This document shows positions 1,590 through 30,755 of a DNA stretch of 64,000 nucleotides, piece by piece (the first letter of the stretch is position 1; every line of letters starts with the position of its first letter). The translations under genes were made by a program, and so were the position numbers. The notes under the pieces were generated by a model. It was not told the DNA's origin. It searched no databases and saw nothing but the letters and a program-made list of their open reading frames with translations. Source of the stretch: Thermomicrobiales bacterium (lineage in GTDB: Bacteria > Chloroflexota > Chloroflexia > Thermomicrobiales > UBA6265); contig DASZAY010000026.1 in NCBI GenBank assembly GCA_035944555.1, positions 117,799-181,798 of the forward strand. Reading direction: 5' to 3'.

Positions 1590-1688
1590 CGCTGTTCCTC
1601 CGTGTGCGTCGGGTGTCCCCTCGTCACATGACGGGGACGACCCAACGTGCATACGGGGTGCCAGCGAGCAGACGTGACCGTGCGGAGG

Positions 1689-2657: not shown

Positions 2658-2715
2658 GGTCTGCTTCCTGGTCGGCTCGACAGGCGGCGGGAAACGGCAG
2701 GCGTGGGGAACCGGG

Positions 2716-3645
2716 TCACGAGATCCGGATCCGCGGGTCGATCAACGCATAGGTCAGATCCGTCAGCAGGTTGCCGATGACGACGATCGTGGCCAACAGC
2801 AGGACCAGCGCCTGGACGACCTGATAATCCAGGCTGAACAGCGAGTTCGAGAACAGCCGCCCAATACCTGGGAAGCTGAACACCGTTTCGATCACGATCG
2901 TCCCGGACAGGATGAAGGCGATCCGGTAGCCCAGCACGGTCACGATTGGCAGCATCGCATTCCGGACGACATGGCGCGTCATGACGACCTTCTCGCGCAG
3001 GCCCTTGGCCCGGGCGGTCTGGACGTGATCGCTGGACAGCGCCTCCAGCGTCGCGCCGCGGGTGACGCGGATAAGGGCGGCCATCTCCTCGAACGCCAGC
3101 ACCGCGACCGGCAGCACGTACGACCGCCATCCATTGGAGGCGCCATACGTCGGGAGCCAGCCGAGGATCGAGGCGAACAGGATGATGCCGAGAATGCCGA
3201 TCCAGTAGTTCGGCACCGCGACGCCCAGCGTCGACGTCGCGGTCGTCACATAATCGAGGACGGAGTTGCGCCGGTACGCCGCGAGGATGCCGAGCGGGAT
3301 CGCGATCGCGATCGCGAGCGTGATCGCCATCACGTTCAGGGCCAGCGTGTACGGGATCGCCTCCGCGATTACCTGCGTTACGGGAGTGCCGCTCCGGCTG
3401 ATGGATTCGCCGAAGTCACCCTGGAGGACATTGCCGATCCAGGTGAGGTACTGCTCGTGGACCGGGCGATCCAGCCCCCACTTCGCGGTGAGATTGTCCC
3501 GGGCTTCCTGGGTCACTCGGGCCGTACCGACGAGCAGATCGACGGGAGAGCCCGGCGCCGCCTTGAGGAGCCCGAAGGTCAGGATGCTGATGAGGAACAG
3601 GACCAGGATGCCCTGCAGCAGTCGGATGACGAGATAGCGCAGCAT
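2716..3645 (-). CDS. ABC transporter permease (DppB/OppB type)
   Basis: 309-aa ORF beginning MLRYLVIRLLQGILVLFLISILTF. It carries TARAKGLREKVVMTRHVVRNAMLP, the EAA-loop type motif of peptide/nickel permeases. Confidence 0.9.
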   Translation of the reverse strand: MLRYLVIRLLQGILVLFLISILTFGLLKAAPGSPVDLLVGTARVTQEARDNLTAKWGLDRPVHEQYLTWIGNVLQGDFGESISRSGTPVTQVIAEAIPYTLALNVMAITLAIAIAIPLGILAAYRRNSVLDYVTTATSTLGVAVPNYWIGILGIILFASILGWLPTYGASNGWRSYVLPVAVLAFEEMAALIRVTRGATLEALSSDHVQTARAKGLREKVVMTRHVVRNAMLPIVTVLGYRIAFILSGTIVIETVFSFPGIGRLFSNSLFSLDYQVVQALVLLLATIVVIGNLLTDLTYALIDPRIRIS

Positions 3646-3782
3646 GGCTCACCAGCGGGGAATGAGGGTTGAACGACGCGGGATGGAAGAGCGACTGAAG
3701 GCAGCCTCGCCATCATGCACGCGGGAGGAACGCGACGGCCCCGCCCGGTCGTCTGGTGGCGACCCGACGAGGCCGTCATGTA

Positions 3783-3825
3783 CAGCCCGACCGGACCGGC
3801 AGTGTGAGCCGGCCCGGTCGGGCTG
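3783..3825 (-). terminator. Intercistronic stem-loop between the SBP gene and the first permease gene (possible attenuator or mRNA stabiliser)
   Basis: CAGCCCGACCGG (3783-3794) pairs with CCGGTCGGGCTG (3814-3825). An inner CCGGC/GCCGG stem closes a 7-nt loop. Confidence 0.45.
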
Positions 3826-3840
3826 CGATGGGCCAGGCGA

Positions 3841-13298: not shown

Positions 13299-13496
13299 AT
13301 GAGCGATTCCGTCGAGCCCGTCCCGGTCAGCCGCTGGTCCCTTCGCCGGGTCATCATCATGGCGGGGCTGGTTATCGCCGGGGCGGCGCTGGTCGTCATG
13401 CTCCTGGTCGTGATCTCAGACCAAGGTGGCAGCGGCGCGACCGGCACGCAGACCCCGGCCCCGATCGTCTTTCCCACCACGACGATCAACCGTTAG
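13299..13496 (+). CDS. Small single-pass membrane protein, hypothetical
   Basis: Strong RBS GGAAAGGAGG 7 nt upstream of the ATG; one TM helix (VIIMAGLVIAGAALVVMLLVVI). Confidence 0.5.
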   Translation: MSDSVEPVPVSRWSLRRVIIMAGLVIAGAALVVMLLVVISDQGGSGATGTQTPAPIVFPTTTINR

Positions 13497-13677
13497 TCCC
13501 GGCTTCCACTGGCGATGGCCGGGGTCGACAGGGCTGCTGCTATACTCGGATGACGCAACGCCCCATCCCATCCATCACGCTGCCCTACCGTTGCGGACTG
13601 CTGCCCGCCGGCGCCGGTCGTTCCGGCATCCCGTTCGGGTGCACGTCGCCCTGTCCAACTGCGGAGGTATCACCCCG

Positions 13678-14736
13678 GTGTTTCGCCCCCTCTCGGCCTT
13701 CTTCGGCCTGTTCAGCCGTGACCTCGGAATCGATCTCGGGACGGCGAACACCCTGGTCTACGTCCGCGGCAAGGGGATCGTGATCTCCGAGCCGTCGGTG
13801 GTCGCCATCGACACCAAGACCCGGCGGGCGATCACGGTCGGCATCGAGGCCAAGGAGATGATCGGCAAAACGCCGAACTCCGTCATCGCCGTCCGGCCGC
13901 TCAAGGACGGGGTGATCGCCGACTTCGACACCGTCGAGATGATGCTCCACTACTTCATCAAGAAGGTGCACATGCAGCGCCTGATGGCGCCGCATCCTCG
14001 CGTCGTGATCGGGATCCCTTCCGGCGTCACGGAAGTCGAGAAGCGGGCCGCCAAGGATGCGGCGCTGTCGGCCGGCGCCCGTGAGGCCTACACGATCGAG
14101 GAGCCGATGGCCGCCGCGATCGGCGCCGGGCTGCCCATCAACGAGCCGATCGGGTCGATGATCGTCGACATCGGCGGTGGCACCACCGAGGTCGCCGTGA
14201 TTTCGCTGGGCGGCATCGTCGTCAATCACTCGCTCCGGGTGGCCGGCGACGAGATCGACGAAGCGATCGTCCAGTACGCCCGCCGCGACCACAACCTCGT
14301 CATCGGCGAGCGGACAGCCGAGAACGCCAAGATGGCGGCCGGCTCCGCCTACCCGCTGGAGGAAGAGGTTCGCGTTACCCTGCGCGGCCGTGACCTGCTG
14401 ACGGGTCTGCCCAAGTCGGTCGAAATCTCGTCCGTCGAGCTGCGTGAGGCGATCAGCCAGCCGATCAACACCATCATCGAGGTGGTCAAGACGGCGATCG
14501 AGGAGACCCCGCCCGAATTGGTCGCCGACATCATGGAGCACGGCGTGACGCTGGCCGGCGGCGGGGCCCTGCTGCTCGGTTTGGACCGTCGCCTCCAGGC
14601 CGAACTCCGGATGCCCGTCTTCCGCGCCGAGGACCCGCTGACCTGCGTCGCCCGCGGGACGGGCCGCGTCGCCGAATCGCTCCAGCTCTACGAGCGCGCC
14701 CTCGCGGGTGGCCAGGAGATCCGGCGCGCATCCTGA
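13678..14736 (+). CDS. mreB: Rod-shape-determining actin homologue MreB
   Basis: FSRDLGIDLGTANTLVYVRGKGIVISEPSVVA...DIGGGTTEVAVISLGGIV...GGGALL. GTG 13678 lies 10 nt after GGAGG. Confidence 0.95.
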   Translation: MFRPLSAFFGLFSRDLGIDLGTANTLVYVRGKGIVISEPSVVAIDTKTRRAITVGIEAKEMIGKTPNSVIAVRPLKDGVIADFDTVEMMLHYFIKKVHMQRLMAPHPRVVIGIPSGVTEVEKRAAKDAALSAGAREAYTIEEPMAAAIGAGLPINEPIGSMIVDIGGGTTEVAVISLGGIVVNHSLRVAGDEIDEAIVQYARRDHNLVIGERTAENAKMAAGSAYPLEEEVRVTLRGRDLLTGLPKSVEISSVELREAISQPINTIIEVVKTAIEETPPELVADIMEHGVTLAGGGALLLGLDRRLQAELRMPVFRAEDPLTCVARGTGRVAESLQLYERALAGGQEIRRAS

Positions 14737-14765
14737 TCGAAGCCGTCGCCCTCGCCCGCTCCTTT

Positions 14766-14800
14766 ACGAAGCCCGCCGGAACATCTCCGGTGGGCTTCGT
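14766..14800 (+). terminator. Stem-loop after mreB (possible partial terminator/attenuator)
   Basis: 15-bp stem ACGAAGCCCGCCGGA / TCCGGTGGGCTTCGT (one G-U pair) with loop ACATC. There is no clear U-tract. Confidence 0.45.
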
Positions 14801-15027
14801 CGTATCCGGTCCGTTGGCTCCGGACGCCACTGGTATCAGGTGCACCGACGTTGAGGCTGACGGGCCGCCAGGTGATGCCGGATTTGTCCGGACCGCGTGA
14901 AGGCCCGTGCTACCCTTGCCGGACTGTTCTCCGCTGACCCGACGCCCCCGGCCCTCCCGTGTGGGCCGGACGGCGATCGTGCGTCCCGGCCTGACCATCC
15001 CTGCCCCTATCCGTCCGCGAGGCGTGC

Positions 15028-16071
15028 GTGCTCAGACCCCACACCGGCAAGGTCCTCGTCCTGCTCGCCATCTTCGTCGTGCTCAGCGGCGCCACGATCC
15101 TGCTGGATCGCCAGGGGCTGCTCGATCCGATCAAGCGCCCGGCCGAGCGGCTGATCGCGCCGGTGACCAGCACGTTCGGGTCGATGGCTCGGGGGCGGGA
15201 GTCGGACAGCGAAGCCGAGATGGCCGCGATCATCGCCGAGCGGGACTATTACCGGTCCGAGGCGATGCGCCTCCAGAATGCCGAGAGCGAGAACACGCAG
15301 CTCCGCCAGCAGCTCGGCATCGAGCAGAAGTACACCGACTTCGAGGTCATCCCGGCCGGTGTGCTGGCCCGCGACCCGAGCAACAGCCAGAAGTTCATCA
15401 CGATCGACAAGGGATCGGACGACGGCGTCATGGTCGGACAGGCGGTCGTCGACCCGAACAACTACGTCGGACAGATCACCGAGGTCGGCCCGACCCAGTC
15501 CCGGGTCACCCTGCTGATCGATACCCAGGCCAGTCCGCTCAGCGTCGAGATCGTCGACGGGGGCGACGGGATGCTCTACGGGATGTGGCAGGCCGGCGGC
15601 CGGGCGGAGATGCGATACGTCGACCTCGACGCCAACCCGCAACCCGGCGACGCCGTTCTGACCAGTAGCGACGGCGTGACACAATCCCGCGGCGTCCCGG
15701 GCGGCCTGCTGATCGGGACCGTCGGGCCTGGCATCCAGAGCGATCCGCTCAGCGACGAGATCACCGTTCCGGTCATCCCGAACGCGGACTTCGAGAACCT
15801 CGAGGTCGTGACGGTGATCCTGGGTCCCCGGGAAGGCACCGGCGCTACCTCCGTCACGCCGAACGAGCCCGTCCCGTCCGGTGATGAAGCAGGCGACGCC
15901 ACCGGAACCGATGCCGATGCGACAGAGCCGGCATCGAGTACCGAACCCGCCACCGGCGACGGGACGGGCGGCGCCCCGGCCAGTGATCCGAACCGGGACG
16001 AGACGCCATCCGGCGACGCCGATCCGTCAGACGAGGGCAGCGGCGGGACCGACCCGCCACTCGCCGGCTGA
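15028..16071 (+). CDS. mreC: Rod-shape protein MreC with long acidic/Pro/Gly/Thr-rich C-terminal tail
   Basis: N-terminal TM segment, coiled coil (AENTQLRQQLG), and beta-barrel region (VMVGQAVVDPNNYVGQITEVGPTQSRVTLLID; GGLLIGTV). The last ~80 aa are low-complexity. Confidence 0.85.
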   Translation: MLRPHTGKVLVLLAIFVVLSGATILLDRQGLLDPIKRPAERLIAPVTSTFGSMARGRESDSEAEMAAIIAERDYYRSEAMRLQNAESENTQLRQQLGIEQKYTDFEVIPAGVLARDPSNSQKFITIDKGSDDGVMVGQAVVDPNNYVGQITEVGPTQSRVTLLIDTQASPLSVEIVDGGDGMLYGMWQAGGRAEMRYVDLDANPQPGDAVLTSSDGVTQSRGVPGGLLIGTVGPGIQSDPLSDEITVPVIPNADFENLEVVTVILGPREGTGATSVTPNEPVPSGDEAGDATGTDADATEPASSTEPATGDGTGGAPASDPNRDETPSGDADPSDEGSGGTDPPLAG

Positions 16072-16153
16072 TCGCCCCGTCATCCCTTGCCACCCACCCT
16101 TTCAGCACCTGACCCGAGTGTCCCAGCCATCACCTGAGGAAGGACCACCCGAC

Positions 16154-17581
16154 GTGAGCAAGCTCCCCGTCCCCGACCTCCGGCTGGCTACGGCCGTGAC
16201 CGCCGCCCGCCTGACCTTGCTCGGTCTCCGCCGCGCCCGCCGGGGCGGGACGGCCGCGCCTGGCCTCGTCGCCGACCGGATCGACCCGGGCATGCTTGGC
16301 AAGCTTAGCCGCCAGTTGCCCCGCGGCGTCGCGCTGGTCGCCGGCACCAACGGCAAGACCACCGTCAGCCGGATGCTCGCCGACATCCTGATCGCCGACG
16401 GCGCAGACGTCGTCCACAACCGCTCCGGCTCCAACCTCGTTCGCGGGGTAACAGCATCCTTCGCGGAACGGACGGGCCCGACGGGCCGCCTCCGGGGCGA
16501 CGTCGGCGTGATCGAGGCCGACGAGGCCGCCTTCCCGGAACTGCTCCGCCGCATCCGGCCGAAGGTGGTGCTGCTCAACAACCTGTTCCGCGACCAGCTG
16601 GACCGCTACGGTGAGCTGGCCTCGATCGCCCGGAACTGGGAAGCGGCCCTGGCCGAGCTCCCGTCCGACGCCATCGTCGTCGCCAATGTGGACGATCCGC
16701 AGATCGCCCAGATCGTCTCCGGCGTGCGGGCAAGGGTCCTGCCGTTCGGCATCAAGGACAGCAACCCGGCCATCCAGCTCAAGGAGCTGCCGCACGCCGC
16801 CGACACGATCCGTAGCCAGCGGACCGGCCAGCCGCTCGTCTACGACGCGCTCTATGTCGGTCACCTCGGCGCGTGGCGGACGGCGGATGGGACGCATCGC
16901 CGCCCGATACTCGCCTTCGCCGGCGACCATATCCGCCTGGACGGCGTCGACTCGCTGTCGATGTACGTCGATGTCGCCGGTCCGCCGGCCATGACGATCC
17001 CGGTCCAGGTCGGCGTGCCGGGGCTGTACAACGCCTACAACGCGCTGGCCGCCACGGCCGCTGCCCGGGCGCTCGGGGTGGGCAGCACCACCATCCAGGA
17101 CGCGCTCCGGGCCTTCCGGTCGGCGTTCGGCCGGATCGAGCGGGTCCAGGTCGACGGGCGGACGCTGACGCTGGCGCTGGTCAAGAACCCGACGGGCTTC
17201 AACGAGGTTCTCCGGATGCTGACGATGGCCGACGGCCAGCTCGAACAGCCGACGATGATCGCGATCAACGACCTCGACGCCGATGGCCGCGATGTCTCGT
17301 GGCTGTGGGACGTCGACTTCGAGTTGCTCGCCGCCGGCGATACCCCGCTGACGACGGCCGGACTCCGGGCGCCGGCCATGGCTAACCGGCTGAAGTACGC
17401 CGGCGTCGGGACTGACCGGATCACCTCAATTTCCGGCGATCTTCCCGCCGCCCTGACCGCGTTCATCCGGTCGCTGCCCGAAGGCGGCAGTGGCTACATC
17501 CTCCCAACCTACACGGCGATGCTTAACATCCGGGCGGCATTGGCCGAGCGCGGCGTCGTCGAGGCGTTCTGGCGCCAGTAG
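16154..17581 (+). CDS. murT: MurT, Mur-ligase-family subunit of lipid II isoglutaminyl synthase
   Basis: GTNGKTT P-loop and a Mur-ligase central domain. The C-terminal DGRDVSWLWDVDFE motif is characteristic of MurT (DUF1727). GTG 16154 follows GAGGAAGGA. Confidence 0.85.
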   Translation: MSKLPVPDLRLATAVTAARLTLLGLRRARRGGTAAPGLVADRIDPGMLGKLSRQLPRGVALVAGTNGKTTVSRMLADILIADGADVVHNRSGSNLVRGVTASFAERTGPTGRLRGDVGVIEADEAAFPELLRRIRPKVVLLNNLFRDQLDRYGELASIARNWEAALAELPSDAIVVANVDDPQIAQIVSGVRARVLPFGIKDSNPAIQLKELPHAADTIRSQRTGQPLVYDALYVGHLGAWRTADGTHRRPILAFAGDHIRLDGVDSLSMYVDVAGPPAMTIPVQVGVPGLYNAYNALAATAAARALGVGSTTIQDALRAFRSAFGRIERVQVDGRTLTLALVKNPTGFNEVLRMLTMADGQLEQPTMIAINDLDADGRDVSWLWDVDFELLAAGDTPLTTAGLRAPAMANRLKYAGVGTDRITSISGDLPAALTAFIRSLPEGGSGYILPTYTAMLNIRAALAERGVVEAFWRQ

Positions 17582-17653
17582 CGTCCCCGGCTTGCACACA
17601 AACCGTCCCACTCACCAACCCATCACCCGGCACCCCGACGGAGGACACGTCAC

Positions 17654-18376
17654 ATGGATCATGATCTGACCATTGCCTGGCTCTACGGTCGCGAGATGAA
17701 CATCTATGGCGACCGCGGCAACGTCGCCGCCCTGGAACAGCGATCCCGGTGGCGCGGGATCACGGTCACGACTGTCCTGTCCGGGCTGGGCGACCCCATG
17801 CCGGACGCCGACCTCTATTTCTGGGGCGGAGGGCAGGACCAGGAGCAGGTCAACGTCGCCCACGACCTGCAGGGCACCAAGGGCGACGCCCTCAGGGCCG
17901 CGGTTGAGGACGGCGCGGCACTGCTGGCCGTTTGCGGCGGCTATCAGCTCCTCGGCCACGGCTACCATCCACACGATGGCGAGGTCCTGCCGGGGATCAG
18001 CCTGTTCGACGCGACGACGGTCGCCGGGCCGGAGCGGTTCATCGGCAACATCGTGATCGACTCGCCGATCGGCGAACTGGTCGGGTTCGAGAACCACAGC
18101 GGCCTGACGACCCTTGGGCCCGGCTGCCAGCCGCTCGGGCGGGTGCGGGCCGGACGTGGCAACAACGGGCGGGACGGGACCGAGGGGGCGATGTACCGCA
18201 ACGCCATCGGCTGTTACATGCATGGCTCGCTGCTTCCCAAGAACCCGGTACTTGCCGACTGGCTGATCGAGCGGGCGCTGAACCGCCGCCACGGCAGCGT
18301 CACCCTGCCCCCGCTGGACGACACCTTCGAGATCGCGGCCCACCAGAATGCCGTGGGGCGCGCCCTCCACGGGTAG
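17654..18376 (+). CDS. gatD: GatD, glutamine amidotransferase subunit of lipid II isoglutaminyl synthase (CobB/CobQ-like GATase)
   Basis: MNIYGDRGN..., nucleophile motif LLAVCGGYQLLG, and C-terminal YMHGSLLPKNP. It lies directly downstream of murT. Confidence 0.85.
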   Translation: MDHDLTIAWLYGREMNIYGDRGNVAALEQRSRWRGITVTTVLSGLGDPMPDADLYFWGGGQDQEQVNVAHDLQGTKGDALRAAVEDGAALLAVCGGYQLLGHGYHPHDGEVLPGISLFDATTVAGPERFIGNIVIDSPIGELVGFENHSGLTTLGPGCQPLGRVRAGRGNNGRDGTEGAMYRNAIGCYMHGSLLPKNPVLADWLIERALNRRHGSVTLPPLDDTFEIAAHQNAVGRALHG

Positions 18377-18670
18377 CCCGGTGCCGGTCCGACACCGCAG
18401 CGCCGAGGCAAACCTTCGCTACGGGTCAGAGCTGTACGGACAGTCTGGCCCAGCCTGCATGGTAGACTCCGGGACATAACCCGCAGGCCGCAGCACCCCT
18501 TTTACGCACCGCCGAAGGTGGCCCGCGGGATCGTTCCGATCTGTCGATTCGCGGTCCGTCGCGGCCGTCATTCTCCTGTCCGAGGTCGCCGTGTCGCGCC
18601 GAACCTGTCCAGCCGGCGCACCTCGAACCGGTGTCGCGATCTCTCTCCCGACCATGTCCGACCGGCCCCG

Positions 18671-19168
18671 ATGATCGGCCGGGTGCTGTTCGCGGCGCTT
18701 CTGATCGCCGCGACCTTTATCCAGGCCACCGTCCTGCCGGTCTGGTGGCCGCTGGAAGTTCAGCCCAACGTCGCTCTGGTCCTGCTCGTCGTCTGGACGG
18801 GCCTGAACGGGATTCCGGCCGGGATCGTGCTGGCGGCAATCCTCGGCGTCACCCTGGATCTGCTGACGCTGGCGCCGCTGGGGATGAACGGCCTGGCGCT
18901 GCTCTCGGCCGTGCTCATCGCCGGGCTGGCCCGGCAGCGGGTCCTGCGTTCGACGCTGATGATCCCGCTGATCCTGACCGTGATCGCCGCGATCGTGCAG
19001 CCTTTCGTCCTGGCGGTTCTCGCGGGGCTGCTGGGAACCGGTGAAGTACCCGGACGCGCCACGTTGCCAGTCCTCGTCACGCAGGCGTTCCTCTGCGCGG
19101 TCTTCGTTCCCCCGCTCTTCCTCATCGCGAGCTGGTTCGCTCGCCGCTTCCCGGAGGTCAGTCGCTGA
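18671..19168 (+). CDS. mreD: Rod-shape protein MreD
   Basis: 165-aa polytopic membrane protein located between the mre genes and mrdA. Its stop overlaps the mrdA ATG (TGATG). An upstream in-frame start at 18518 is possible but adds Arg-rich non-membrane sequence. Confidence 0.7.
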   Translation: MIGRVLFAALLIAATFIQATVLPVWWPLEVQPNVALVLLVVWTGLNGIPAGIVLAAILGVTLDLLTLAPLGMNGLALLSAVLIAGLARQRVLRSTLMIPLILTVIAAIVQPFVLAVLAGLLGTGEVPGRATLPVLVTQAFLCAVFVPPLFLIASWFARRFPEVSR

Positions 19169-21792
19169 TGGCTCGTCGCAGACGCATGCAGTTCCAGGAG
19201 ACGGGACGCGGTCGCCGGTCGATGCCGGAATCGTTCGAGCGCGTCTTCATCACCCGGCGGATGCTTATCGCGAAGACGGCGATCGTCGGCGGCTTCGCGG
19301 CGCTGGCCGGGCGGCTGGGCTACCTCCAGATCGTCGACCACGAGCAGGCCGTGTCTGCGGCCCGGGGGAACACCCAGTACCGGAAGACGCTGCCCGCAGC
19401 CCGCGGCCTGATCTACGACCGCAAGGGCCGGTTGCTGGCCAAGAACGAGACAGCATTCCAGGTCGAGGTGATCCCCGAACTGCTTCCCAGCCAGGACGAC
19501 CAGCCCGCGGAGCGCCGCCGGGTGCTCGACCAGCTGATCTCCGAACTCCAGTTGCCGGACGTGCTGGTCGTCAACCCGCGGGCGATCCCCGCCGACCAGA
19601 AGGACGCCGTCTACACGCTGATCCAGCAGAAGCGGAACCGGACCGGCCAGGCGCTGACGGAGGCCGTCGATGCCATCTACAAGGCCGAGGAGCTGAACTA
19701 CGTCATCCAGCTTGGCGGGCCGCTGTCCATCGACGAAGCCGCTCGCTGGCGATCCGAGAGCCGCCACATCCCGGGGCTGAGCGTGATGAACCAGCTGGAC
19801 TACCAGCTGGAGAACACGTTCTCCGACTCCAGCAACCCGATCATCGTCAAGACCGGCGTCGAGCGCGAGACGGCGATGCTGATCGAGGCCAACAAGTTGT
19901 TCCTCCCCGGCGTGCGGGTGGACGGCACGGTCCTCGTCCGGCGCTACCCCGGAGGCGCGTCGATGTCGCACATCCTCGGCTTCGTCGGTCCGGTCAGCGA
20001 AGAGGACATCAACGAGAACCTTACTGACGGCGGCGCGAAGATCTACGCCGACAACGACCGGATCGGCAAGGACGGCCTGGAGAAGGCGCTGGAGAAAACC
20101 CTGAGGGGCCAGAAGGGCGTCCAGATGGTCCTCCGCGACGCGCTCGGCAACGAGATCGGCATCGCGCCCGGCTCCGAGAACTTCAACCAGGAGGCGTCGT
20201 CCGGCGAGAGCGTCTCGCTGACGATCGACCTGGAGCTCCAGTCCGCCGCGACGCGGGCACTGAAGAGCTACATCGAGTACAGCAACGAGGACCGCAGGTC
20301 CAAGGACAACATGGAGGGCAAGCAGCGGGCGAACTCCGGGGCCGTGGTCGCGATCGACCCACGGAACGGAGACGTGTTGGCGATGGTCAGCTACCCGCAG
20401 TTCGACAACGAGTTGCTGTCGCAGGGCATCTCCTCCGCGCTGTTCGATGAGCTGACGGACCCCGCCAGTGGCGCTCCATACTTCAACCGGGCCATCGCGT
20501 CCGCACAGCCACCGGGATCGACCTTCAAGAGTTTCCTCGCCGCCGCCGCGCTCAAGGAAGGCACACTTACCCCGGAGACGACCTACGTCTGTACGGGTGG
20601 ACTTGGTCTGCCCAAGAGCAACAACAACCTAGTAGACCCTAATCCGCACCCATGCTGGAACTTCTGGGATGGGCATGGTGCGATGAATCTCGATGAAGCT
20701 CTGCGCACCTCCTGTGATGTCTTCTTCTACAATACCGGAACAAAAGATGTTGAGGGACTTTTCTACATGGATCTCGACTTCGATCCTGACGGGAACCTCA
20801 TCAACGTTGGCATCGAAGATCCTAAGGAATTCAACGGACTGGGAATTGACCTGTTCCACAAGAATATGGTCGACCAGTTCTGGTTCAGCCGGCGAACCGA
20901 AATCATTCTGGGTGGCGAACCGACAGGACTCATGCCCAGTCAGGAATATCTGAAAGATACGTTCGGCGGGGCTGGTTGGACAGCAGGTGACACGATCCTG
21001 TCCTCGATCGGCCAAGGCATGGTCCAGGTCACCCCGCTTCAGATGGCGGTCAACACGGCTGCCCTCGCCAACCACGGCACGATCTACCGACCGAACCTGA
21101 TCCACGAGACGATCCGCGGAGCGTCGGAATCCGTCGCGACTGACGGCACGCCGGAACCGCTGTCCGGCGAGGCCGAGCGGATTCCGTACGAGCGGCCGGA
21201 GCCACTGCGCAAGACGGATTTCAAGCCGGAGCATCTCGAGCCGGTGCGGAAAGCGATGTACAACGTCGTCAACTACTATGAGAATCCTAATTCCCAACTC
21301 AACGGCTCAGTGAGTTCGGTGCAACTCGCCGATATGACGCGATCGACCGAACTTGCCTGGCCGCGGACCAACCCACCCGGCACTGAGGAGAAGGACATCA
21401 TCCGGATCGCCGGCAAGACCGGGACAGCGGAGGTTGCCCCCTCGGAAGAGGGCTTGGAAGAGCTGGACGAGAATAACAAGTACCTGAACCAGCACGCCTG
21501 GTTCACGTGCTGGGCTCCGTACGAGGAGCCGGAGATCGTCGTCTCGGTCCTGCTCGAGTATGGCGGCGAAGGCGGAACCTACGCCGCTCCCTGCGCCGAC
21601 ACCGTCCTCCGGGCGTACTTCGAGACGACCGGCAAGCGATCACGCGGGCAGAAGATCACGGTCAATGGCGAGGACCGGTTGGTCTCGGTCCTTGATGAGA
21701 ACGGCGAGCCGGTTACCGACATCGCTAACGCCCCGAGCCTCGCCTTCTGGAAGCTGGGCGAGACGGCGAATGCGGCCGGCAACAGCGACTAG
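19168..21792 (+). CDS. mrdA: Penicillin-binding protein 2 (elongasome transpeptidase), unusually long (874 aa)
   Basis: PBP dimerisation domain (RGLIYDRKGRLLA). Transpeptidase motifs: SGAVVAIDPRNGDVLAMVSYP, STFK (about 20518), CW..GHG...SCDVFFY (about 20650-20725), KTGTAE (about 21415). Confidence 0.9.
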   Translation: MARRRRMQFQETGRGRRSMPESFERVFITRRMLIAKTAIVGGFAALAGRLGYLQIVDHEQAVSAARGNTQYRKTLPAARGLIYDRKGRLLAKNETAFQVEVIPELLPSQDDQPAERRRVLDQLISELQLPDVLVVNPRAIPADQKDAVYTLIQQKRNRTGQALTEAVDAIYKAEELNYVIQLGGPLSIDEAARWRSESRHIPGLSVMNQLDYQLENTFSDSSNPIIVKTGVERETAMLIEANKLFLPGVRVDGTVLVRRYPGGASMSHILGFVGPVSEEDINENLTDGGAKIYADNDRIGKDGLEKALEKTLRGQKGVQMVLRDALGNEIGIAPGSENFNQEASSGESVSLTIDLELQSAATRALKSYIEYSNEDRRSKDNMEGKQRANSGAVVAIDPRNGDVLAMVSYPQFDNELLSQGISSALFDELTDPASGAPYFNRAIASAQPPGSTFKSFLAAAALKEGTLTPETTYVCTGGLGLPKSNNNLVDPNPHPCWNFWDGHGAMNLDEALRTSCDVFFYNTGTKDVEGLFYMDLDFDPDGNLINVGIEDPKEFNGLGIDLFHKNMVDQFWFSRRTEIILGGEPTGLMPSQEYLKDTFGGAGWTAGDTILSSIGQGMVQVTPLQMAVNTAALANHGTIYRPNLIHETIRGASESVATDGTPEPLSGEAERIPYERPEPLRKTDFKPEHLEPVRKAMYNVVNYYENPNSQLNGSVSSVQLADMTRSTELAWPRTNPPGTEEKDIIRIAGKTGTAEVAPSEEGLEELDENNKYLNQHAWFTCWAPYEEPEIVVSVLLEYGGEGGTYAAPCADTVLRAYFETTGKRSRGQKITVNGEDRLVSVLDENGEPVTDIANAPSLAFWKLGETANAAGNSD

Positions 21793-23613: not shown

Positions 23614-26109
23614 GTGGCAACCACCTACTCCAGATCGGGCGCGTCGGCTCCGGAACCCGTCCATGGTGACCCGTCACGTGGTGATGCCCACGATGGTGAA
23701 TCCTCGTGCGATCTGATCGGACGGGATGCCGAGCTCAGCACGCTGTCCGGCTGGTTGAAGGAGCCCGACGTCCGCCTCGTCACGATCACCGGACCCGGTG
23801 GCGTAGGCAAGACGACCCTGGCCAACGCGGTCGCCGACGCAATGCAGGACGCTGCCCGGGTCGTTCCCATCCCACTGGCCGGGATCCCTACCCCTTCCCT
23901 GCTCGCCCCGACGATCGGCCGGGCACTCGACGGCAGCGCTCCGACCAGCGAGGCACTGGTCGATCTCGTCAACCAGCAGATCACCTCGGGGCCGCTGTTG
24001 CTCGTGCTGGACAACCTCGAACATCTGCTTCCCGGCACCGAGGTGATCGAGGCCCTGGTAGCCGAATGTCCCGGCACTCGGCTGCTCATCACATCTCGCG
24101 AGCCGCTCCACCTTGCCGGTGAGCGTGAGTTCCCACTCATGCCCCTCGCGGCACCTCCCGATGACGGTACGCCCTCTGGCGTCCGCGTCATCGCCCGTTC
24201 TCCCGCGGTCCGCCTGTTCGTACGGCGGATGCGGGCCGTGCGGCCCGGCTTCACGCTGGACGATGACAGCGCCGACGATGTCGCCCGGCTCTGCCGGCGG
24301 CTTGACGGATTGCCCCTGGCGATTGAACTCGCCGCTGCCCGGACCCGGTCCATTCCCCTGCCGTTCCTCGTCGCCCGGCTGGAGCACGACCCGTCACTGC
24401 TGGATCGCCCGGACCGGTCATTCGCGGAAATGGACGCCCGGACCGATCGCCACCGGGGGCTCCGAGCCGTCGCCGCATGGTCCTATGATCTGCTCTCGCC
24501 TACCGAGCAGCGCATGTTCCGCCATCTCGCGCTCCTTCCCGGCCCGTTCCCCCTGTCCGCGGCCGAGGCCTGCGACCAGGACGCCGAAGGCGTTATCGCC
24601 TCACTGGTCGACAAGAGCCTGGTGGAGCAGATCCCCTCGCCGGTGGCCGGGGAGACCAAGTCATGGTTTCGCATGCTGGAAACGCTCCGGCAGTACGGGT
24701 TGGAGCGTCTCCGGAGCGCTGGCGAGGAGCCGTTCGCCCGGGTCCGGTTGGCGCGCTGGGCTCTGGACGAGGTCGAAGCCCACACCGTCCCGTTTCCATC
24801 CGACCGGTACCACCCGGCAAGCTTCGCCTGGTGCGCGGCGCTCCTGCCCGCTATCCGGTCGGCCCTGACCTGGCTGGAGGAATCCAACGACGCGCCCCGC
24901 CTGATCCGCTTCGCCATCCGCCTCGGGCCGTTCTGGACGCTCCAGTCGTTCCGGACCGAAGGGCTGACGTGGTGCAATCACATCCTGACTCAGGTGGACT
25001 TCGATGCGGTCTCACCGGATGACATGGCGCGCTTCTGGTTGACGATCGCCGCTATCGCCCGGACCCAGGCCCGTATCCAGCCGGCCATCGCCGCAGCCGA
25101 GCGTGCTCGCGACTACTACGATCAGACGGGCGACGTCCTGCTCGCCGCCGTGTCGGAGAAACTGCTGGGATCGATCTACCGGACCGCTGGCGATATCGAG
25201 GCCGCCCTGGGGCCGTGCCAGCGCGCCGTCGACCTGTTCTCCCGGCTCGGCGAGCGCCAATGGATGGCCCTGGCTCGCTGTGATCTCGGCGATGTCCTGC
25301 TCCTGCGGGGTGAGACGGCCGCCGCTGCCGCCCACCTCCGCGTCGCCGAGCGCGAACACCGGGTCAACGGCGATGCGTGGGGCACGACCTTCGCGCTTGT
25401 CGGCCTGGCGACGGTCGCCGTGACGGAACGCAACTGGGCCGCCGCGCTTCCCCCGCTCCGGGAAGCGCTCCAGATCGCGACGAACCTCTCGGCCCGTGAG
25501 AGTGTGTTGGACGCTACCAACCTGATCGCCGCGATCGCCGCCGCAACCGGACACCCTCATGCCGCCCTACGCCTTGCGGCTGCCAACCGAGCGCTGAGAA
25601 CCAGCATCGCCTACTGCCTGGAAGCATCCGACGATGCGCTCGCCTACGAGACGCTCGCCCGGACTACCGCTGCCCTCGAACGCCACGCCGCTGATCAGTG
25701 CCAGCAGGAGGGGTCCGGCATGTCGTTCCCGACCATGACCCGTGCCGCCTTCGACCTCCTGGATACCCTCTCCGCGGGTGGCCCACTGGCCGACACCGAT
25801 CCCGGGACGTTGTCCGCCCATTCCCACTCCGGAACGACGAACGGGAAACCGCGAGATGGCCGGGAGCCACTCACCAGCAGGGAACGTGAGGTCCTCGCAC
25901 TCCTCGCCGAGGGTATCACCGACCGCGAGATCGGCGACCGGCTGTTCATCAGCCCGCGAACGGCCATGCGCCACGTCGCCAATATCCTGCTCAAGCTCCA
26001 GGTCCACAGCCGGACAGCGGCTGCCGTGATCTATCATCGCGAGCGTGCTGGCGAAGGACCTGGCAGCGCGACCGCGGCCAGAACCCGGAGTCGCCCTCCA
26101 GCCCTCTGA
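23614..26109 (+). CDS. Large ATP-binding LuxR-family regulator (LAL/STAND type: P-loop NTPase + TPR-like repeats + C-terminal LuxR HTH)
   Basis: Walker A ITGPGGVGKTTLA and an NB-ARC-like core (LLVLDNLEHL). A long helical repeat region follows. The C-terminus is LTSREREVLALLAEGITDREIGDRLFISPRTAMRHVANILLKL. GTG start. Confidence 0.85.
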   Translation: MATTYSRSGASAPEPVHGDPSRGDAHDGESSCDLIGRDAELSTLSGWLKEPDVRLVTITGPGGVGKTTLANAVADAMQDAARVVPIPLAGIPTPSLLAPTIGRALDGSAPTSEALVDLVNQQITSGPLLLVLDNLEHLLPGTEVIEALVAECPGTRLLITSREPLHLAGEREFPLMPLAAPPDDGTPSGVRVIARSPAVRLFVRRMRAVRPGFTLDDDSADDVARLCRRLDGLPLAIELAAARTRSIPLPFLVARLEHDPSLLDRPDRSFAEMDARTDRHRGLRAVAAWSYDLLSPTEQRMFRHLALLPGPFPLSAAEACDQDAEGVIASLVDKSLVEQIPSPVAGETKSWFRMLETLRQYGLERLRSAGEEPFARVRLARWALDEVEAHTVPFPSDRYHPASFAWCAALLPAIRSALTWLEESNDAPRLIRFAIRLGPFWTLQSFRTEGLTWCNHILTQVDFDAVSPDDMARFWLTIAAIARTQARIQPAIAAAERARDYYDQTGDVLLAAVSEKLLGSIYRTAGDIEAALGPCQRAVDLFSRLGERQWMALARCDLGDVLLLRGETAAAAAHLRVAEREHRVNGDAWGTTFALVGLATVAVTERNWAAALPPLREALQIATNLSARESVLDATNLIAAIAAATGHPHAALRLAAANRALRTSIAYCLEASDDALAYETLARTTAALERHAADQCQQEGSGMSFPTMTRAAFDLLDTLSAGGPLADTDPGTLSAHSHSGTTNGKPRDGREPLTSREREVLALLAEGITDREIGDRLFISPRTAMRHVANILLKLQVHSRTAAAVIYHRERAGEGPGSATAARTRSRPPAL

Positions 26110-26225: not shown

Positions 26226-26438
26226 CCGCCCTCCCCATACTCGGTCCTTAGAGGCGTCCTGCGAGCGCGACCACTCCATGCCCATCGATTCCGCTCGGGG
26301 AATCGTCCGGGGCATGGACCGACTCCGCGTTCTCTGGACCCTGCCGGTATCGGTGACCGGCGCAAATGGACGACGACGTCGCCCCGGCTGATCGCGGGTC
26401 GCGTCGCCCGGGTTACTGGTTAATTGGAGGTCGCGCGC

Positions 26439-29400
26439 ATGTCTTCGAAGTCACCTATGTGGATCCGGACCATCCCACGCCTGGTCCAGTTGGCCATGGC
26501 CCTCAGCCTGTTGTTGGCCCTGGCCGTTCCCCTCATCGATGCAGGCGGTCGAGGCGCGCTGGCCGCGTCGAACGGCACAGCCGGAACCGTCAATGGGACC
26601 ACCGACCCGTCGGCGTCCGACCCGGCCGAGCTCCCACCGGTCAACCAGGAAGGGGAACCACCGGTCGAGCCGGAGCCCTCGCTGGACGAGGAGCCGTCCC
26701 TGGAGGAAGTGCCGTCCCTGGACGCTGGCGAGCCGTCATTCGAGCCATCAGAAGACCCGTCGCCATCCGCCGAGCCGAGCGGGAATGGCGCCATCGAGCT
26801 GGCGGTCTGGGGTTGTCCCGCGTCGGTCCTGGACGCGACCAGCTCCGACGACCTGTCACAGCTCTGCACGGACCCGGTCAACGGGGTCAGCGTCACGCTC
26901 GATCCGCCTGGCACCACCGGCCAGACCGGTCCGCCTGAGCCGGACGGGATTGTCCGGTTCACCGGCCTCATGGCTGGCGACTACGAATTGCAGTCCACGC
27001 TCCCGACGGGATACCAGTCCGCATTCTCGGTGACCTGCGAGGGGGCGGGTCTGCCTGCCACCGACGTGGCTCGTCTGGTGGAAGTGGTCGTCAACCCGGT
27101 CACGGTCGGGATGGACGAGACCGTCTCCTGCGATTGGTACCTGGTCGAGGAAGGAACCGATCCGGCCATCACCATCTCCAAGTGGGAGTGCCCGGCCGGC
27201 TACGACTTCCGGGATCCGGACTCCGACCCCGAGATGGACTGCACCACGCCGCTGGAGGAGATCGACTTCCTGCTGCAGCGGACTGAACCGACCGCTGACA
27301 GCCAGACGATCACTACGGATCCCGGTGGCCTCGTGGTCGTCGATCAGCTCGAGCCAGGCTCATGGGAACTGAGCGAGGTCGCCTCTGAGGAGTACCCGGC
27401 CGGCGCCACCGGCTTCCGGTACTGCACCGACTTCGGCTTCGGCCAGCCCGGCTACGAGGAGACGGCGGTCGAGGACGTCTTCAGCTTCGAGGTCGAGGAA
27501 GGCGAAACGTTCGAGGGCGTCTGCCGCTGGTACAACGTCCCCGGCCAGGACGCGTCAGGATCCCCGTCAGGCAGCGGATCGCCGTCCGGCGACCCGTCGG
27601 CCAGCACGACTGATCCGGCCATCAGCATCACCAAGTGGGAGTGCCCGGCCGGGTATGACTACACGGACCCGGACAGCGACCCGGAGATGGATTGCACCAC
27701 GCCGCTTGAAGGGGTGGATTTCCTCGTCGAGCGTTCCGCCCCGACGGCCGAGAGCATCACCATCACGACGGACGCGAACGGCGCCGCGACCCTGGACTCG
27801 ATCGAGTCAGGCACCTGGAATCTTTCGGAGGTCCCGTCCACGGATTACCCGGCCGGTGTCGACGGGTTCCGCTACTGCACGGACTTCGGCTTCGGCCAGC
27901 CGGGATATGAAGCCGCCCCGGTCGGCGAGCCATTCACCTTCGAGGTCGAGGAAGGCGAGACGTTCGAAGGGGTTTGCCGCTGGTACAACATCCCCGATCA
28001 GGTCGGGTCGGCCGACACCGACAACAGCGTCACCATCCGGAAGTGGACGTGCCCGCCGCTGCCCTCGGACGCGCCGAACACGACGAACCTCGAGCTGACC
28101 TGCACCGAGGAACTCGGTGGCATCACGTTCGACCTGAACCAGACCGACCCGATGCCAACCGGGCAGGTCGCGACGACGGCGGATGACGGGATTGCGACCT
28201 TCACCGGGGTCGGCCCCGGATCCTGGACCCTGACGGAACGCCCGACCGCGAGATTCGCTGTCAGCGAGCAGGCCTGGTTCAGCTGTTCCGGCGCGGACGG
28301 CTTGCCTGCCGGCTACGTCTCCACCCCAGTGGGGTCCCCGTACGCGTTCGAGATCCCGGACGACACCACGTATGCCATCACGTGTGACGTGTACAACGTT
28401 TCCGTCGGCACGGCGATCAACGTCTTCAAATGGGTCTGCCCGGTGGGTTACGACTACACCGCTGCAGGAGCCAACCCGGTCCTAGATTGCTCCGGCGCGG
28501 TCGACGGGATCGCGTTCCGTCTCGCCCAGACTGCGCCGACCACCAGCGAGACGACCCTCGTGACCGGCACCTTCCAGCCAGGAGCGGCACGGTTCGAAGA
28601 GCTCCAGTCCGGGAGTTACGACCTCACCGAGCTCGCCTCGCCGTACCAGCCCGAGGGGTTCTACCGCTGCTACGACTACCTCGAGGAGCCGGGCGACTTC
28701 GCGCCGATCACCGTGGGCCAGCCCTACCAGTTCTCCATCGACGAAGCCGTGTTCCAGGGTGTCTGCCACTTCTACAACATCCCGTGGGACAACGGGATCA
28801 CCGTCCACAAGTGGTCCTGCCCGGTCGGCTACGAGGTGACGCAGGAGACCGATCCCTATGCCGACTGCACCGAGGTGGCCAACGGGGTCCAGTTCACCGT
28901 CTCCCAGGCGGAGGTCAGCCTGACCGGCGCGTCGGGCAATGACGGTCCGGGCCGCGTGGACTTCGACGGTCTGGGGCCGGGCGAATGGACTATCACGGAG
29001 ACACCGCCCGCGGGCTACATGGGCGTCCTGATCGGTACCTGCTACCCGGAGGGCGGCACGCCTGACGGCACATTCGTCACCTATGGGATGGACGAGACGT
29101 GGTCCGTTCCGGTCCAGATCGCCGAAGGTGAGTCTTCCCGCTGGGTCTGCCACTTCTTCAACATCTACAGCGACGACCCCGGCACGGTCTACATCTACAA
29201 GTGGACCTGCCCGGCGGGATACGACTACGCCGCCTGGGGCGCTGACCCGGAGATGGACTGCACCGAGGTGGCCAACGGCGTCCAGTTCAACGCCGAAGGG
29301 CCGGATGGCTACGCCTCCCAGACCGACACCGGCGACTCCATCGACGGTGCGGTGATGTTCGGCGGGATCCAGCCCGGTGAGTACGTCTTCACCGAGACCC

Positions 29401-30755
29401 TCCCGCCGGATACGGCCTACGTCTTCATCACGAGGTGCACCGGGACCAGCGTCGACGCGGTCCAGCCCTACCCGCTCCAGGTCGGCAACCCGCTGACCGT
29501 CCAGGTCAACCCGGGCGACGAGATCACTTGCCACTGGTACAACGTGCCCTACGACCCCTACGGCACGATCATCGTCACCAAGTACCTCTGCTCCACCTAC
29601 ACGTACACGGCGGCCGTAAACTGCGAGATCTACGAGGGCGGGGTCGTGTTCGACCTGCTCGTGGTCGAGGACGGCGACCTGGAGCCGCTCACCGACGGCT
29701 CCACCGGCCCGAACGGTCGGCTGACCTTTGCAGACATCGACCCCGGGACCTACCTCGTCCATGAGCAGGACGGCAAGCCGTGCTACATCAGCTCGACGAT
29801 CGTCGAGGACGGGTACATCGGCGTGGTCGAGGGGCAGACCACCTACGTCAACGTCTACAACTGCAAGCAGCCGCCGGCGTCCGGCAGCCCCTCCGGCAGC
29901 CCCTCCGGCAAGCCGAAGCCGAGCAACCAGCCGCCGGGCAAGTACCCCAACACCGGCGTCGATCCCGGGACCATCGCCCAGGGACCGGGCATGGTGGCAG
30001 GCTCGGAGGAGAGCCCGGAGCCGGACAACAGCGACGGCCCCGGACCGGGTGACGGTTCCGGCGCCGGGGACGGCTCCGGTCCTGGCGACGGGAATGGTCG
30101 GTCCAGCGCCGCGGCGGAGGCCGGCTGCCCCGTCGCAACTTCCCCCAACGACCAGATCGACCCTTCGCCGAGCCCGGACAGCGACGAGCCGTCATTCGAG
30201 AGCCCATCGCCGAGCGCCCAGGAGGTGACCGCGGCCTCCTTGGCGCCGACGCCCGACCCGGCGGATGCCCCTGAATGTGAGCGTGGCGAACTCCCGGTCC
30301 ATATCGCCATCGAGGACGCGGACGTCGACCATGACCTCGAGTACCTGGAGACGGTCAACGGCGAGATGCAGGAGCCGACGGGCCCGGACGACGCCTCCTG
30401 GTACCTGGAAACCAGCCGGCTCGGCGAAGACGGTCCGATGGTGATCTCCGGCCACCTGAACTGGTGGAACGTCCCTGAGGGTCCGTTCTACGCGATCGCC
30501 GAACTGGAGCCGGGCGCGATCATCGAGGTGACCGGCGAGGACGGCGGCCTGTACCGCTACGAGGTCCGGTCTGTCTCTCAGGCGGCATCCGACTCGTCAC
30601 CGTCCGACGTCTTCAATAGTGTCCAGGACCAGCTCGGCGGAGAGACCCTGGTCCTGATCACCTGCGGTGGAGAGTGGGATACGTCGACCGCCGAGTACAA
30701 CCAGCGGACCGTCGTTGTCGCGGTCCGTATCCCGGCCGACGCGGACGCGGGTTGA
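26439..30755 (+). CDS. Secreted multi-domain protein: signal peptide, acidic Pro/Ser linker, 8 Cys-rich CnaB/SpaA-like repeats, YPNTG motif, Gly/Asp/Pro/Ser linker, C-terminal class-F-like sortase domain
   Basis: Uninterrupted ORF. ATG 26439 lies 8 nt after TGGAGG. Signal-like N-terminus: RLVQLAMALSLLLALAVPLIDAGGRGALAAS. Repeats and the sortase motifs are listed as separate features. Confidence 0.85.
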   Translation: MSSKSPMWIRTIPRLVQLAMALSLLLALAVPLIDAGGRGALAASNGTAGTVNGTTDPSASDPAELPPVNQEGEPPVEPEPSLDEEPSLEEVPSLDAGEPSFEPSEDPSPSAEPSGNGAIELAVWGCPASVLDATSSDDLSQLCTDPVNGVSVTLDPPGTTGQTGPPEPDGIVRFTGLMAGDYELQSTLPTGYQSAFSVTCEGAGLPATDVARLVEVVVNPVTVGMDETVSCDWYLVEEGTDPAITISKWECPAGYDFRDPDSDPEMDCTTPLEEIDFLLQRTEPTADSQTITTDPGGLVVVDQLEPGSWELSEVASEEYPAGATGFRYCTDFGFGQPGYEETAVEDVFSFEVEEGETFEGVCRWYNVPGQDASGSPSGSGSPSGDPSASTTDPAISITKWECPAGYDYTDPDSDPEMDCTTPLEGVDFLVERSAPTAESITITTDANGAATLDSIESGTWNLSEVPSTDYPAGVDGFRYCTDFGFGQPGYEAAPVGEPFTFEVEEGETFEGVCRWYNIPDQVGSADTDNSVTIRKWTCPPLPSDAPNTTNLELTCTEELGGITFDLNQTDPMPTGQVATTADDGIATFTGVGPGSWTLTERPTARFAVSEQAWFSCSGADGLPAGYVSTPVGSPYAFEIPDDTTYAITCDVYNVSVGTAINVFKWVCPVGYDYTAAGANPVLDCSGAVDGIAFRLAQTAPTTSETTLVTGTFQPGAARFEELQSGSYDLTELASPYQPEGFYRCYDYLEEPGDFAPITVGQPYQFSIDEAVFQGVCHFYNIPWDNGITVHKWSCPVGYEVTQETDPYADCTEVANGVQFTVSQAEVSLTGASGNDGPGRVDFDGLGPGEWTITETPPAGYMGVLIGTCYPEGGTPDGTFVTYGMDETWSVPVQIAEGESSRWVCHFFNIYSDDPGTVYIYKWTCPAGYDYAAWGADPEMDCTEVANGVQFNAEGPDGYASQTDTGDSIDGAVMFGGIQPGEYVFTETLPPDTAYVFITRCTGTSVDAVQPYPLQVGNPLTVQVNPGDEITCHWYNVPYDPYGTIIVTKYLCSTYTYTAAVNCEIYEGGVVFDLLVVEDGDLEPLTDGSTGPNGRLTFADIDPGTYLVHEQDGKPCYISSTIVEDGYIGVVEGQTTYVNVYNCKQPPASGSPSGSPSGKPKPSNQPPGKYPNTGVDPGTIAQGPGMVAGSEESPEPDNSDGPGPGDGSGAGDGSGPGDGNGRSSAAAEAGCPVATSPNDQIDPSPSPDSDEPSFESPSPSAQEVTAASLAPTPDPADAPECERGELPVHIAIEDADVDHDLEYLETVNGEMQEPTGPDDASWYLETSRLGEDGPMVISGHLNWWNVPEGPFYAIAELEPGAIIEVTGEDGGLYRYEVRSVSQAASDSSPSDVFNSVQDQLGGETLVLITCGGEWDTSTAEYNQRTVVVAVRIPADADAG
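26790..29867 (+). repeat. Eight tandem ~120-130-aa Cys-rich prealbumin/CnaB-like domains (coding repeats R1-R8)
   Basis: Repeat starts are approximately 26790, 27165, 27618, 28026, 28413, 28794, 29184 and 29565. Recurrent pattern: x-I-x-K-W-x-C-P ... D/T-C-T ... G-x-W/Y-x-L/I-x-E ... C ... C-x-W/F-Y/F-N. R2 and R3 are the most similar pair. Confidence 0.85.
29943..29957 (+). other. LPXTG-like motif YPNTG
   Basis: Codons TAC CCC AAC ACC GGC follow a Pro/Ser/Gly/Lys linker (PASGSPSGSPSGKPKPSNQPPGK). The motif is followed by VDPGTIAQGPGMVAGSEESPEPD..., with no hydrophobic anchor or basic tail. Confidence 0.5.
30291..30752 (+). other. Sortase (class-F-like) catalytic domain at the C-terminus of the giant protein
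   Basis: LPVHIAIEDADVD...EPTGPDDASWY...GPMVISGHLNWW (His codon 30453-30455) ...ETLVLITCGG (Cys codon 30663-30665) ...NQRTVVVAV (Arg codon 30705-30707). The order and spacing of the His/Cys/Arg triad match sortases. Confidence 0.8.

Follow-up and report, generated by a model that had tools for sequence, protein, structure and literature searches.

A sortase fused to its probable substrate in Thermomicrobiales, with an acidic tether where relatives carry a membrane-retention signal

In a stretch of 64,000 nucleotides (nt) from a Thermomicrobiales assembly (GCA_035944555.1, contig DASZAY010000026.1, positions 117,799 to 181,798 of the forward strand; hereafter, the window), we identified a single open reading frame (ORF), 26424..30755 (+), that encodes 1443 amino acids (aa) and holds a series of repeats, the pentapeptide YPNTG, a tether and a sortase domain. 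Comparison with its relatives indicates that this gene is probably a substrate-sortase fusion, the enzyme of which would process YPNTG in its own or a sister chain and join the repeat stalk to the cell envelope, with the tether replacing the retention signal. In the canonical systems, a hydrophobic segment and a basic tail keep the substrate in the membrane beside a membrane-anchored sortase. The pairing of a sortase with a sorting signal is of a known kind; what appears to be new is the covalent tether that stands where relatives have a membrane-retention signal. The parts of the gene are listed below, with residues numbered, here and throughout, from the start called by the ORF lister (TTG 26424).

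26439..30755 (+): whole gene, with signal peptide, eight SpaA-like repeats, probable sorting motif, tether and sortase
26439..26564 (+): N-terminal Sec-type signal peptide, with a basic n-region, the h-region LVQLAMALSLLLALAVPLI and a putative cleavage site between ALA and AS
26601..26777 (+): N-terminal acidic Pro/Glu/Ser linker, EPSFE included
26778..29867 (+): eight tandem prealbumin-like (SpaA/SdrD-B type) domains of ~125-150 aa each, forming the passenger or stalk
29868..29942 (+): Pro/Ser/Gly/Lys linker before the motif, holding the conserved K(-5), P(-3) and K(-1)
29943..29957 (+): YPNTG motif, aa 1174-1178 (TAC CCC AAC ACC GGC), with the predicted scissile bond between T1177 and G1178
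29958..30125 (+): acidic Gly/Asp/Ser/Pro low-complexity tether, at the position of a two-helix membrane hairpin in relatives
30126..30278 (+): Cys-bounded segment from C1235 (CPVATSP) to C1285 (CERG), homologous to the N-terminal linker of stand-alone sortases
30279..30752 (+): class-F-like sortase catalytic domain, with His1344 at 30453-30455, Cys1414 (LITCGG) at 30663-30665 and Arg1428 at 30705-30707

Relatives were collected by an exhaustive HMMER search of cluster representatives with the sortase domain alone, plus a profile search; an earlier query that combined linker and domain gave 8 matches, with low-complexity words filling the candidate list, and was replaced by the domain-alone search. 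We identified 41 cluster representatives below 1e-30 in the HMMER search, most of them proteins of 400-2359 aa with a C-terminal sortase. Among the 56 relatives in which at least 150 aa precede the domain, chosen without pre-selection on the motif, 50 contained exactly one [YFW]P[ND]TG within 300 aa upstream, compared to 0.145 expected from composition-preserving shuffles. The six relatives without the single motif are proteins of 307-367 aa, with 151-215 aa upstream of the domain. The substrate-sortase fusion recurs in more than 50 clusters at no more than 50% identity, with the motif directly upstream of the enzyme. The nearest match in a one-genome-per-species collection belongs to a Thermomicrobiales metagenome-assembled genome (MAG), where the enzyme is 45% identical and ...GKQPGKYPNTGRQ... 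occupies the same place. A homologue search with the last SpaA domain and the motif as the query gave no match, and a scan of metagenomes by an alignment-derived pattern was used instead. The window protein itself had no exact match in public assemblies.

The first-pass annotation of this stretch had suspected that Tyr in place of Leu at position P4 could make the motif coincidental. In the 53 aligned fusions, P4 is occupied by Tyr in 43, Phe in 8 and Trp in 2, and P2 by Asn in 48 and Asp in 5, such that an aromatic P4 is the signature of the family. Tyr at this position is the family rule and therefore no sign of coincidence. Positions that had not been used in the selection are conserved as well: P(-3) in 50 of the 53 fusions, K(-1) in 39, K(-5) in 37, V, A or I at +5 in 48, and P(+7) in 34, which extends the family consensus to K-x-P-x-K-[YF]-P-N-T-G-[VAI]-x-P. 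The alignment of orthologues suggested by the same annotation for xPNTG comes out in favour of the motif: it is retained across relatives, unlike the linkers on either side. A motif that arose by chance, or one that persists as a non-functional remnant of a past gene fusion, would fit the replacement of the canonical Leu by Tyr and the absence of a hydrophobic segment and basic tail from the window protein; we consider either to be very improbable given the excess over the shuffled expectation, the invariance of the motif at no more than 50% identity between proteins, the neighbouring linkers of which (14-108 aa) cannot be aligned, and the retention of the catalytic triad. From this comparison, it is very probable that YPNTG is genuinely recognised by a sortase. 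Two other readings were discarded: an N-glycosylation sequon, since N-T-G does not match N-x-S/T, and an exosortase- or archaeosortase-type signal, since the fused or adjacent enzyme is a sortase.

The domain at the C-terminus passes the threshold for the sortase superfamily (MEROPS C60), with a Pfam PF04203 score of 62.2 bits against a cut-off of 26.6 over aa 1320-1435. The triad residues H1344, C1414 (in LVLITCGG, of the TLxTC type) and R1428 are invariant in 53/53, 53/53 and 52/53 fusions, respectively. In an AlphaFold2 (AF2) model of aa 1160-1443, the predicted local distance difference test score (pLDDT) of the catalytic domain is 93-98, and all 50 listed Foldseek matches in the PDB are sortases of classes A, C, D or E, with a probability of 1.00 and with class C among the neighbours. 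A profile search of the PDB sequences matched sortases weakly (the best, 4d70, at E = 2.6e-11), and a single-sequence search of the PDB with the enzyme gave no match. Judged by these residues and the predicted fold, the fused sortase appears to be catalytically intact. When the NCBIfam models were ranked, class F (NF033748) came first, with 81.3 bits for the domain and 75.7 bits for the full protein (E = 5e-23), the model being covered end to end; the next class, GN, reached 25 bits (E = 1e-5), more than 50 bits behind. The Chloroflexota relatives tested scored 84-115 bits against the class F cut-off of 166. By these profile scores, the enzyme represents a divergent class-F-like lineage and is not a class F member by the curated criterion.

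The text that the first-pass annotation had quoted for 29868-30290 (aa 1149-1289) matches the sequence exactly, and its description of the motif as placed after the last repeat and a Pro/Ser/Lys linker, and as lacking a hydrophobic anchor and basic tail, is borne out. YPNTG follows the eighth SpaA-like repeat and the linker; no hydrophobic segment was found after the motif (Kyte-Doolittle maximum of 0.11 in 19-aa windows starting at aa 1140-1300), and the 111 aa between motif and enzyme contain 22 D+E vs. 2 K+R. The motif is followed by 265 aa, and there is no C-terminal basic tail. No membrane anchor precedes the catalytic domain either, as there is no hydrophobic segment from aa 41 to the domain; the sole hydrophobic segment of the protein is N-terminal (aa 17-40, up to 2.45 in the same 19-aa windows). 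Compared to the tripartite sorting signal, the window protein has the pentapeptide and misses the other two features, the hydrophobic segment and the basic tail.

The proposal that a flexible acidic tether to the enzyme replaces the retention element agrees with the comparison across the family. In 17 of the 53 fusions, a hydrophobic segment and a basic tail occupy this very place (hereafter, hairpin-bearing fusions), and the tethers of the hairpin-less fusions are acidic as a class (308 D+E vs. 38 K+R; net negative in 35 of 36). The window tether has an AF2 pLDDT of ~41-60 and is predicted to be disordered. The idea of a plain flexible spacer holds in so far as the tether is acidic and predicted to lack order; its second half, however, is by homology the sortase's own N-terminal linker, shared with stand-alone sortases, rather than a new spacer, and has a conserved pair of cysteines. 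Of 52 family members, 51 have either none or two cysteines in the tether: 36 have two, including a C-x-R-G box, 12 have none, and 3 have two without the box; the remaining member has three. One cysteine usually falls in a C-[LP]-x-A-T-P-like box and the other in C-x-R-G, immediately upstream of the domain; in the window they are C1235 (30126-30128) and C1285 (30276-30278), and CLPATP...CxRG boxes occur in stand-alone sortases too. Cysteine pairing in an exported protein suggests that C1235 and C1285 probably form a disulfide that closes a loop before the sortase domain. The reuse of EPSFE from the N-terminal linker in the tether, which the first-pass annotation had reported, is real at the DNA level (26711-26744 vs. 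30167-30200, 34 nt, 79% identity, repeat D8; a second match joins 26608-26629 and 30244-30265, 22 nt, 82%) but trivial: it is a low-complexity resemblance with no clear duplication.

The hairpin-bearing fusions show what the tether replaces. After the motif, a short spacer leads into a hydrophobic segment of 12-17 aa, then S-R-R-R-F/L, and then a second hydrophobic segment that ends in A-Q-D; the series continues with conserved Q-x-I-E-P and C-L-P-A-T-P boxes, followed by C-x-R-G and the sortase. Sequence comparison identifies a canonical sorting signal in the first half of this series and the signal anchor of a sortase in the second. That second half corresponds to the N-terminal regions of stand-alone sortases of 200-250 aa from the same clade, such as P0058, which begins MSTAISRRRLATLLAVPLGAAALRRSGLVAQ...CLPATP...CLRGPVP, and P0166; these enzymes are named 'class F sortase [Thermomicrobiales / Chloroflexota]' by NCBI. 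In some fusions, such as P0056, L007, L020, L027 and L031, an in-frame translated spacer is followed by a recognisable sortase start, M-x-x-T-L-S/T-R-R-K-L-A-A-L-L. A short anchor before the catalytic domain is present in the stand-alone and hairpin-bearing relatives alike. We accordingly place the window gene, on the basis of its sequence, among the hairpin-less substrate-sortase fusions, in which the two-helix membrane hairpin appears to have been lost. The complete canonical sorting signal of the hairpin-bearing relatives points to true substrate behaviour and bears on a further explanation, namely that the motif is a tethered pseudo-substrate that keeps the enzyme off until a signal arrives, or a site of hydrolytic release between Thr and Gly without transpeptidation to the wall. 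Sortases slowly hydrolyse substrates when no nucleophile is available, an occluding lid controls class C sortases, and, once its signal peptide is removed, a hairpin-less protein has nothing evident to keep it at the membrane. The tether, however, is 14-108 aa long, disordered and unconserved, unlike a structural lid, and we regard both forms of this explanation as improbable.

Unfused forms, with substrate and sortase in separate genes, also exist. The stand-alone sortase P0166 is flanked by SpaA-repeat genes, the products of which carry TKYPNTG or SFPNTG near the C-terminus, and one of these substrates (L002, gene 936-3995) ends in TKYPNTGVGPNESGPVQELPAAAPLAGLLGLLVLRPYCLRKRTVTVRYDC, that is, motif, hydrophobic segment and basic tail. 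The presence of the motif at the C-terminus of a separate SpaA-repeat protein beside a stand-alone sortase upholds its earlier description as sorting-like. A motif-anchored scan of metagenome contigs yielded 30 confirmed loci, of which about 12 are hairpin-less fusions, about 15 are hairpin-bearing fusions, and 3 are unfused with very short tails. In a rough neighbor-joining tree, computed without support values, all fusions fall in one clade, with hairpin-less, hairpin-bearing and stand-alone forms interleaved, which suggests repeated transitions. Contig Ga0209176_10000004 carries two different hairpin-less fusions, L018 and L032, ~22 kb apart and each with its own enzyme; one genome can therefore hold several passengers with dedicated enzymes. 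All family members in public databases come from metagenomes or MAGs and are labelled just 'sortase' or 'hypothetical protein', and the named relatives are Thermomicrobiales or Chloroflexota MAGs.

At three loci, the boundary between substrate and sortase was found to be interrupted. At L002:7850-8010, an in-frame stop splits the substrate from the sortase: the substrate ends KYPNTGIPPVVQPDDRLQP (stop), and the frame runs on without a further stop into MTPTLSRRKLAALL. At L008, from nt 545, YPDTGVAPD is followed by a stop, after which the same frame continues into a hydrophobic segment, an RRR stretch and the sortase. The in-frame stops of L002 and L008 could reflect sequencing error, a pseudogene or programmed readthrough. 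At L003:2132-8630, a 1951-aa SpaA protein with KYPNTGVDP lies next to a 'sortase gene' without a signal peptide, and we read the two as one hairpin-less fusion broken by a frameshift because the conserved tether box YFKISCLDEP goes on in another frame.

For the window gene itself, an assembly or frameshift artefact was ruled out, since a single coding frame runs across linker, tether and enzyme, with a G+C content at third codon positions of 0.81-1.0 in the ORF frame, and since the same architecture is found in more than 50 divergent clusters. The antisense ORFs at the locus are high-GC shadows. The repeats that make up the passenger open with K-W-x-C-P in most units and close with C-x-[WF]-[YF]-N in most, the final one closing with VYNC; motif spacing together with the DNA repeat families D1-D7 delimits eight units, from aa ~119 to 1148. 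Pfam assigns PF17802 at 124.3 bits in 5 stretches, above the curated threshold, and PF17210 at 63.8 bits. The window protein has a c-region of the AxA type, as do most full-length relatives, whether hairpin-bearing or hairpin-less. The start at TTG 26424 is probably wrong: the closest relative, P0009, uses the equivalent of ATG 26439, which is the likelier true start because GGAGG lies at 26426-26430, 8 nt before the ATG.

In the mechanism that we favour, the protein would be exported by means of its cleavable N-terminal signal peptide, and the stalk of ~1030 aa, composed of eight SpaA-like domains, would present the Lys/Pro-rich linker and the clade-specific K-Y-P-N-T-G. The fused enzyme would recognise YPNTG in cis, within its own chain, or in trans, on a sister molecule, and cut between Thr1177 and Gly1178, so that the stalk would be held as a thioacyl intermediate on Cys1414. 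The stalk would then be passed to an envelope amine acting as the nucleophile, most probably one in a stem peptide or cross-bridge of the peptidoglycan. Throughout, the covalent tether would do the job of membrane co-retention. This replacement would explain why the hydrophobic segment and the basic tail are dispensable. Because deleting both helices keeps the topology of stalk and enzyme, the helix of the sorting signal could disappear together with the signal anchor of the sortase. The two fusions on one contig, each with its own enzyme, and the peptidoglycan machinery encoded in the window fit this mechanism.

Several observations weigh against this mechanism. The enzyme stays below the curated cut-off for class F. 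AF2 left the motif disordered and undocked, with a pLDDT below 50 in the window protein and of ~46-55 in a relative with a short linker (P0037), although such non-docking counts neither for nor against docking in cis. A freely secreted enzyme would be further from lipid II than a membrane-anchored one, which makes the acceptor uncertain. Furthermore, some unfused SpaA-repeat proteins (L011, L017 and L002:9213-13238) stop 9-13 residues past the motif, for example in YPNTGVPMNEPTPVPERP (stop) and SFPNTGVPPARNDP (stop); they have neither a hydrophobic segment nor a basic tail, there is no sortase downstream in L011 and L017, and these proteins are apparently anchor-less substrates. Finally, a stand-alone sortase elsewhere in the genome, of which 64 kb are visible, could be the real processing enzyme.

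This last point can be developed into an explanation in which the motif is genuine and is cut by a separate, stand-alone housekeeping sortase, while the fused domain works on different proteins, for instance the KYPNTG proteins that lack an anchor. The clade does include stand-alone sortases, one of which serves a cluster of several KYPNTG-ending proteins, and the AF2 models give no sign of docking in cis. Against this, the fusion occurs in more than 50 divergent clusters with the motif always directly upstream of the enzyme, the two fusions on one contig each have their own enzyme, and tethering raises the local concentration of the substrate, which makes processing of the same or a sister chain hard to avoid. 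We therefore consider the involvement of a separate enzyme unlikely, and processing by the fused sortase remains the probable course.

Comparison with known systems shows both shared and distinct features. With SrtA/LPXTG of S. aureus, class E LAXTG and P. acnes SrtF/LPXTG, the window protein shares a signal peptide, a repeat passenger, a Pro/Lys-rich wall-spanning linker, an xPxTG motif and a His-Cys-Arg sortase with TLxTC. The canonical sorting signal, with its hydrophobic segment and basic tail, is kept in relatives of the window protein; the family departs from it in having an aromatic P4 (Y/F/W) rather than Leu and an almost invariable Asn at P2, and the window protein in having an internal motif, with the enzyme on the same polypeptide and without an anchor of its own. 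Compared to class F sortases, the window protein carries a passenger of ~1170 aa in place of the short N-terminal anchor, and its apparent motif is [YF]PNTG, not LPXTG. P. acnes SrtF uses LPXTG, and a quadruple deletion of class F sortases in Actinoplanes had no phenotype. The physiological role of class F sortases in Actinobacteria has been reported as unknown (PMC13251363).

Sortase-assembled pili resemble the window protein in their SpaA/prealbumin-like passenger and the conserved Lys near the motif, and class C sortases are among the structural neighbours of the enzyme. In contrast to these pili, the enzyme is class-F-like rather than class C, and the window contains no separate operon of pilin and sortase; a pilin motif of the YPK type was not noticed in the translation of the window, where no systematic search for one was made. 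A parallel in design is found in engineered self-cleaving sortase fusions such as STEPL, reportedly introduced by Warden-Rothman et al. in 2013, which is said to be an engineered construct of protein, LPXTG, flexible linker and SrtA that ligates itself and works in cis. By this account, a sortase tethered in cis is able to act on the motif upstream of it and to join the passenger to an amine. The window protein has passenger, sorting motif, flexible linker and sortase in the same order. Unlike STEPL, a laboratory construct based on class A SrtA and LPXTG, the window family is natural and widespread, with another sortase class, motif and tether. Our literature search, from which subscription journals were largely absent, gave no report of a sortase naturally fused to its substrate, of [YF]PNTG serving as a motif for sorting, or of Thermomicrobia sortases.

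If processing by the fused enzyme is correct, the family offers a natural alternative to the usual sortase rule, under which the substrate is held in the membrane for a membrane-anchored enzyme: here the substrate would be wired to the enzyme and both helices dropped. As a 'Rosetta stone' pairing, the fusions link a class-F-like lineage of sortases with a candidate motif, K-[YF]-P-N-T-G, and with a class of substrates, the SpaA-repeat stalks. They would also be a natural counterpart of engineered self-ligating sortase tags, with a new specificity, in a lineage that has cultured extreme thermophiles, such as Thermomicrobium roseum.

A more speculative possibility, to which we give little credence at present, is that the substrate in the hairpin-less fusion carries at its end a sortase that acts once and independently of the membrane, performing ligation that does not depend on lipid II. 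After removal of the signal peptide, the protein would be free in the wall zone, where the enzyme would cut its own YPNTG between Thr and Gly and stay as a thioacyl 'charged' tip on the 1100-aa stalk; the stalk would then be ligated to mature-envelope amines, further copies of the protein or foreign surfaces instead of lipid II. Combined with the KYPNTG proteins that lack an anchor, this would amount to a lipid-II-independent route to a covalently cross-linked protein layer, and it could bear on the protein-dominated cell wall of Thermomicrobia. The wall of Thermomicrobium is dominated by protein, with suspected cross-links to peptidoglycan (PMC2615216).

Elsewhere in the 64-kb window, we found no second sortase and no substrate with a canonical sorting signal. 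A cell-shape and wall cluster at 13414-21789 (+), within 5 kb of the fusion gene, contains mreB, mreC, a MurT-like Mur ligase and PBP2, and indicates that the organism makes peptidoglycan. The MurT family has been linked to amidation of the stem peptide. Directly upstream of the fusion gene, on the same strand, lies a large regulator of the MalT/LAL style (23614-26109, +), in which an AAA/NACHT-like ATPase is combined with TPR repeats and a GerE helix-turn-helix of the LuxR type; the fusion gene may be under its control.

A sister subfamily (P0217-P0269) comprises small stand-alone Chloroflexota sortases of 200-240 aa with a highly conserved box, I-x-S-T-x-x-G-E-[VM]-P-T-T-G-G-[LM]-R-P-G-P. 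This box is situated between the signal peptide and the catalytic domain and amounts to an xPxTG-like motif in cis without a passenger; if cut at this site, the enzyme would begin with Gly-Gly. The single locus of this subfamily that was inspected (L034:6001-6666) stands alone among housekeeping genes.

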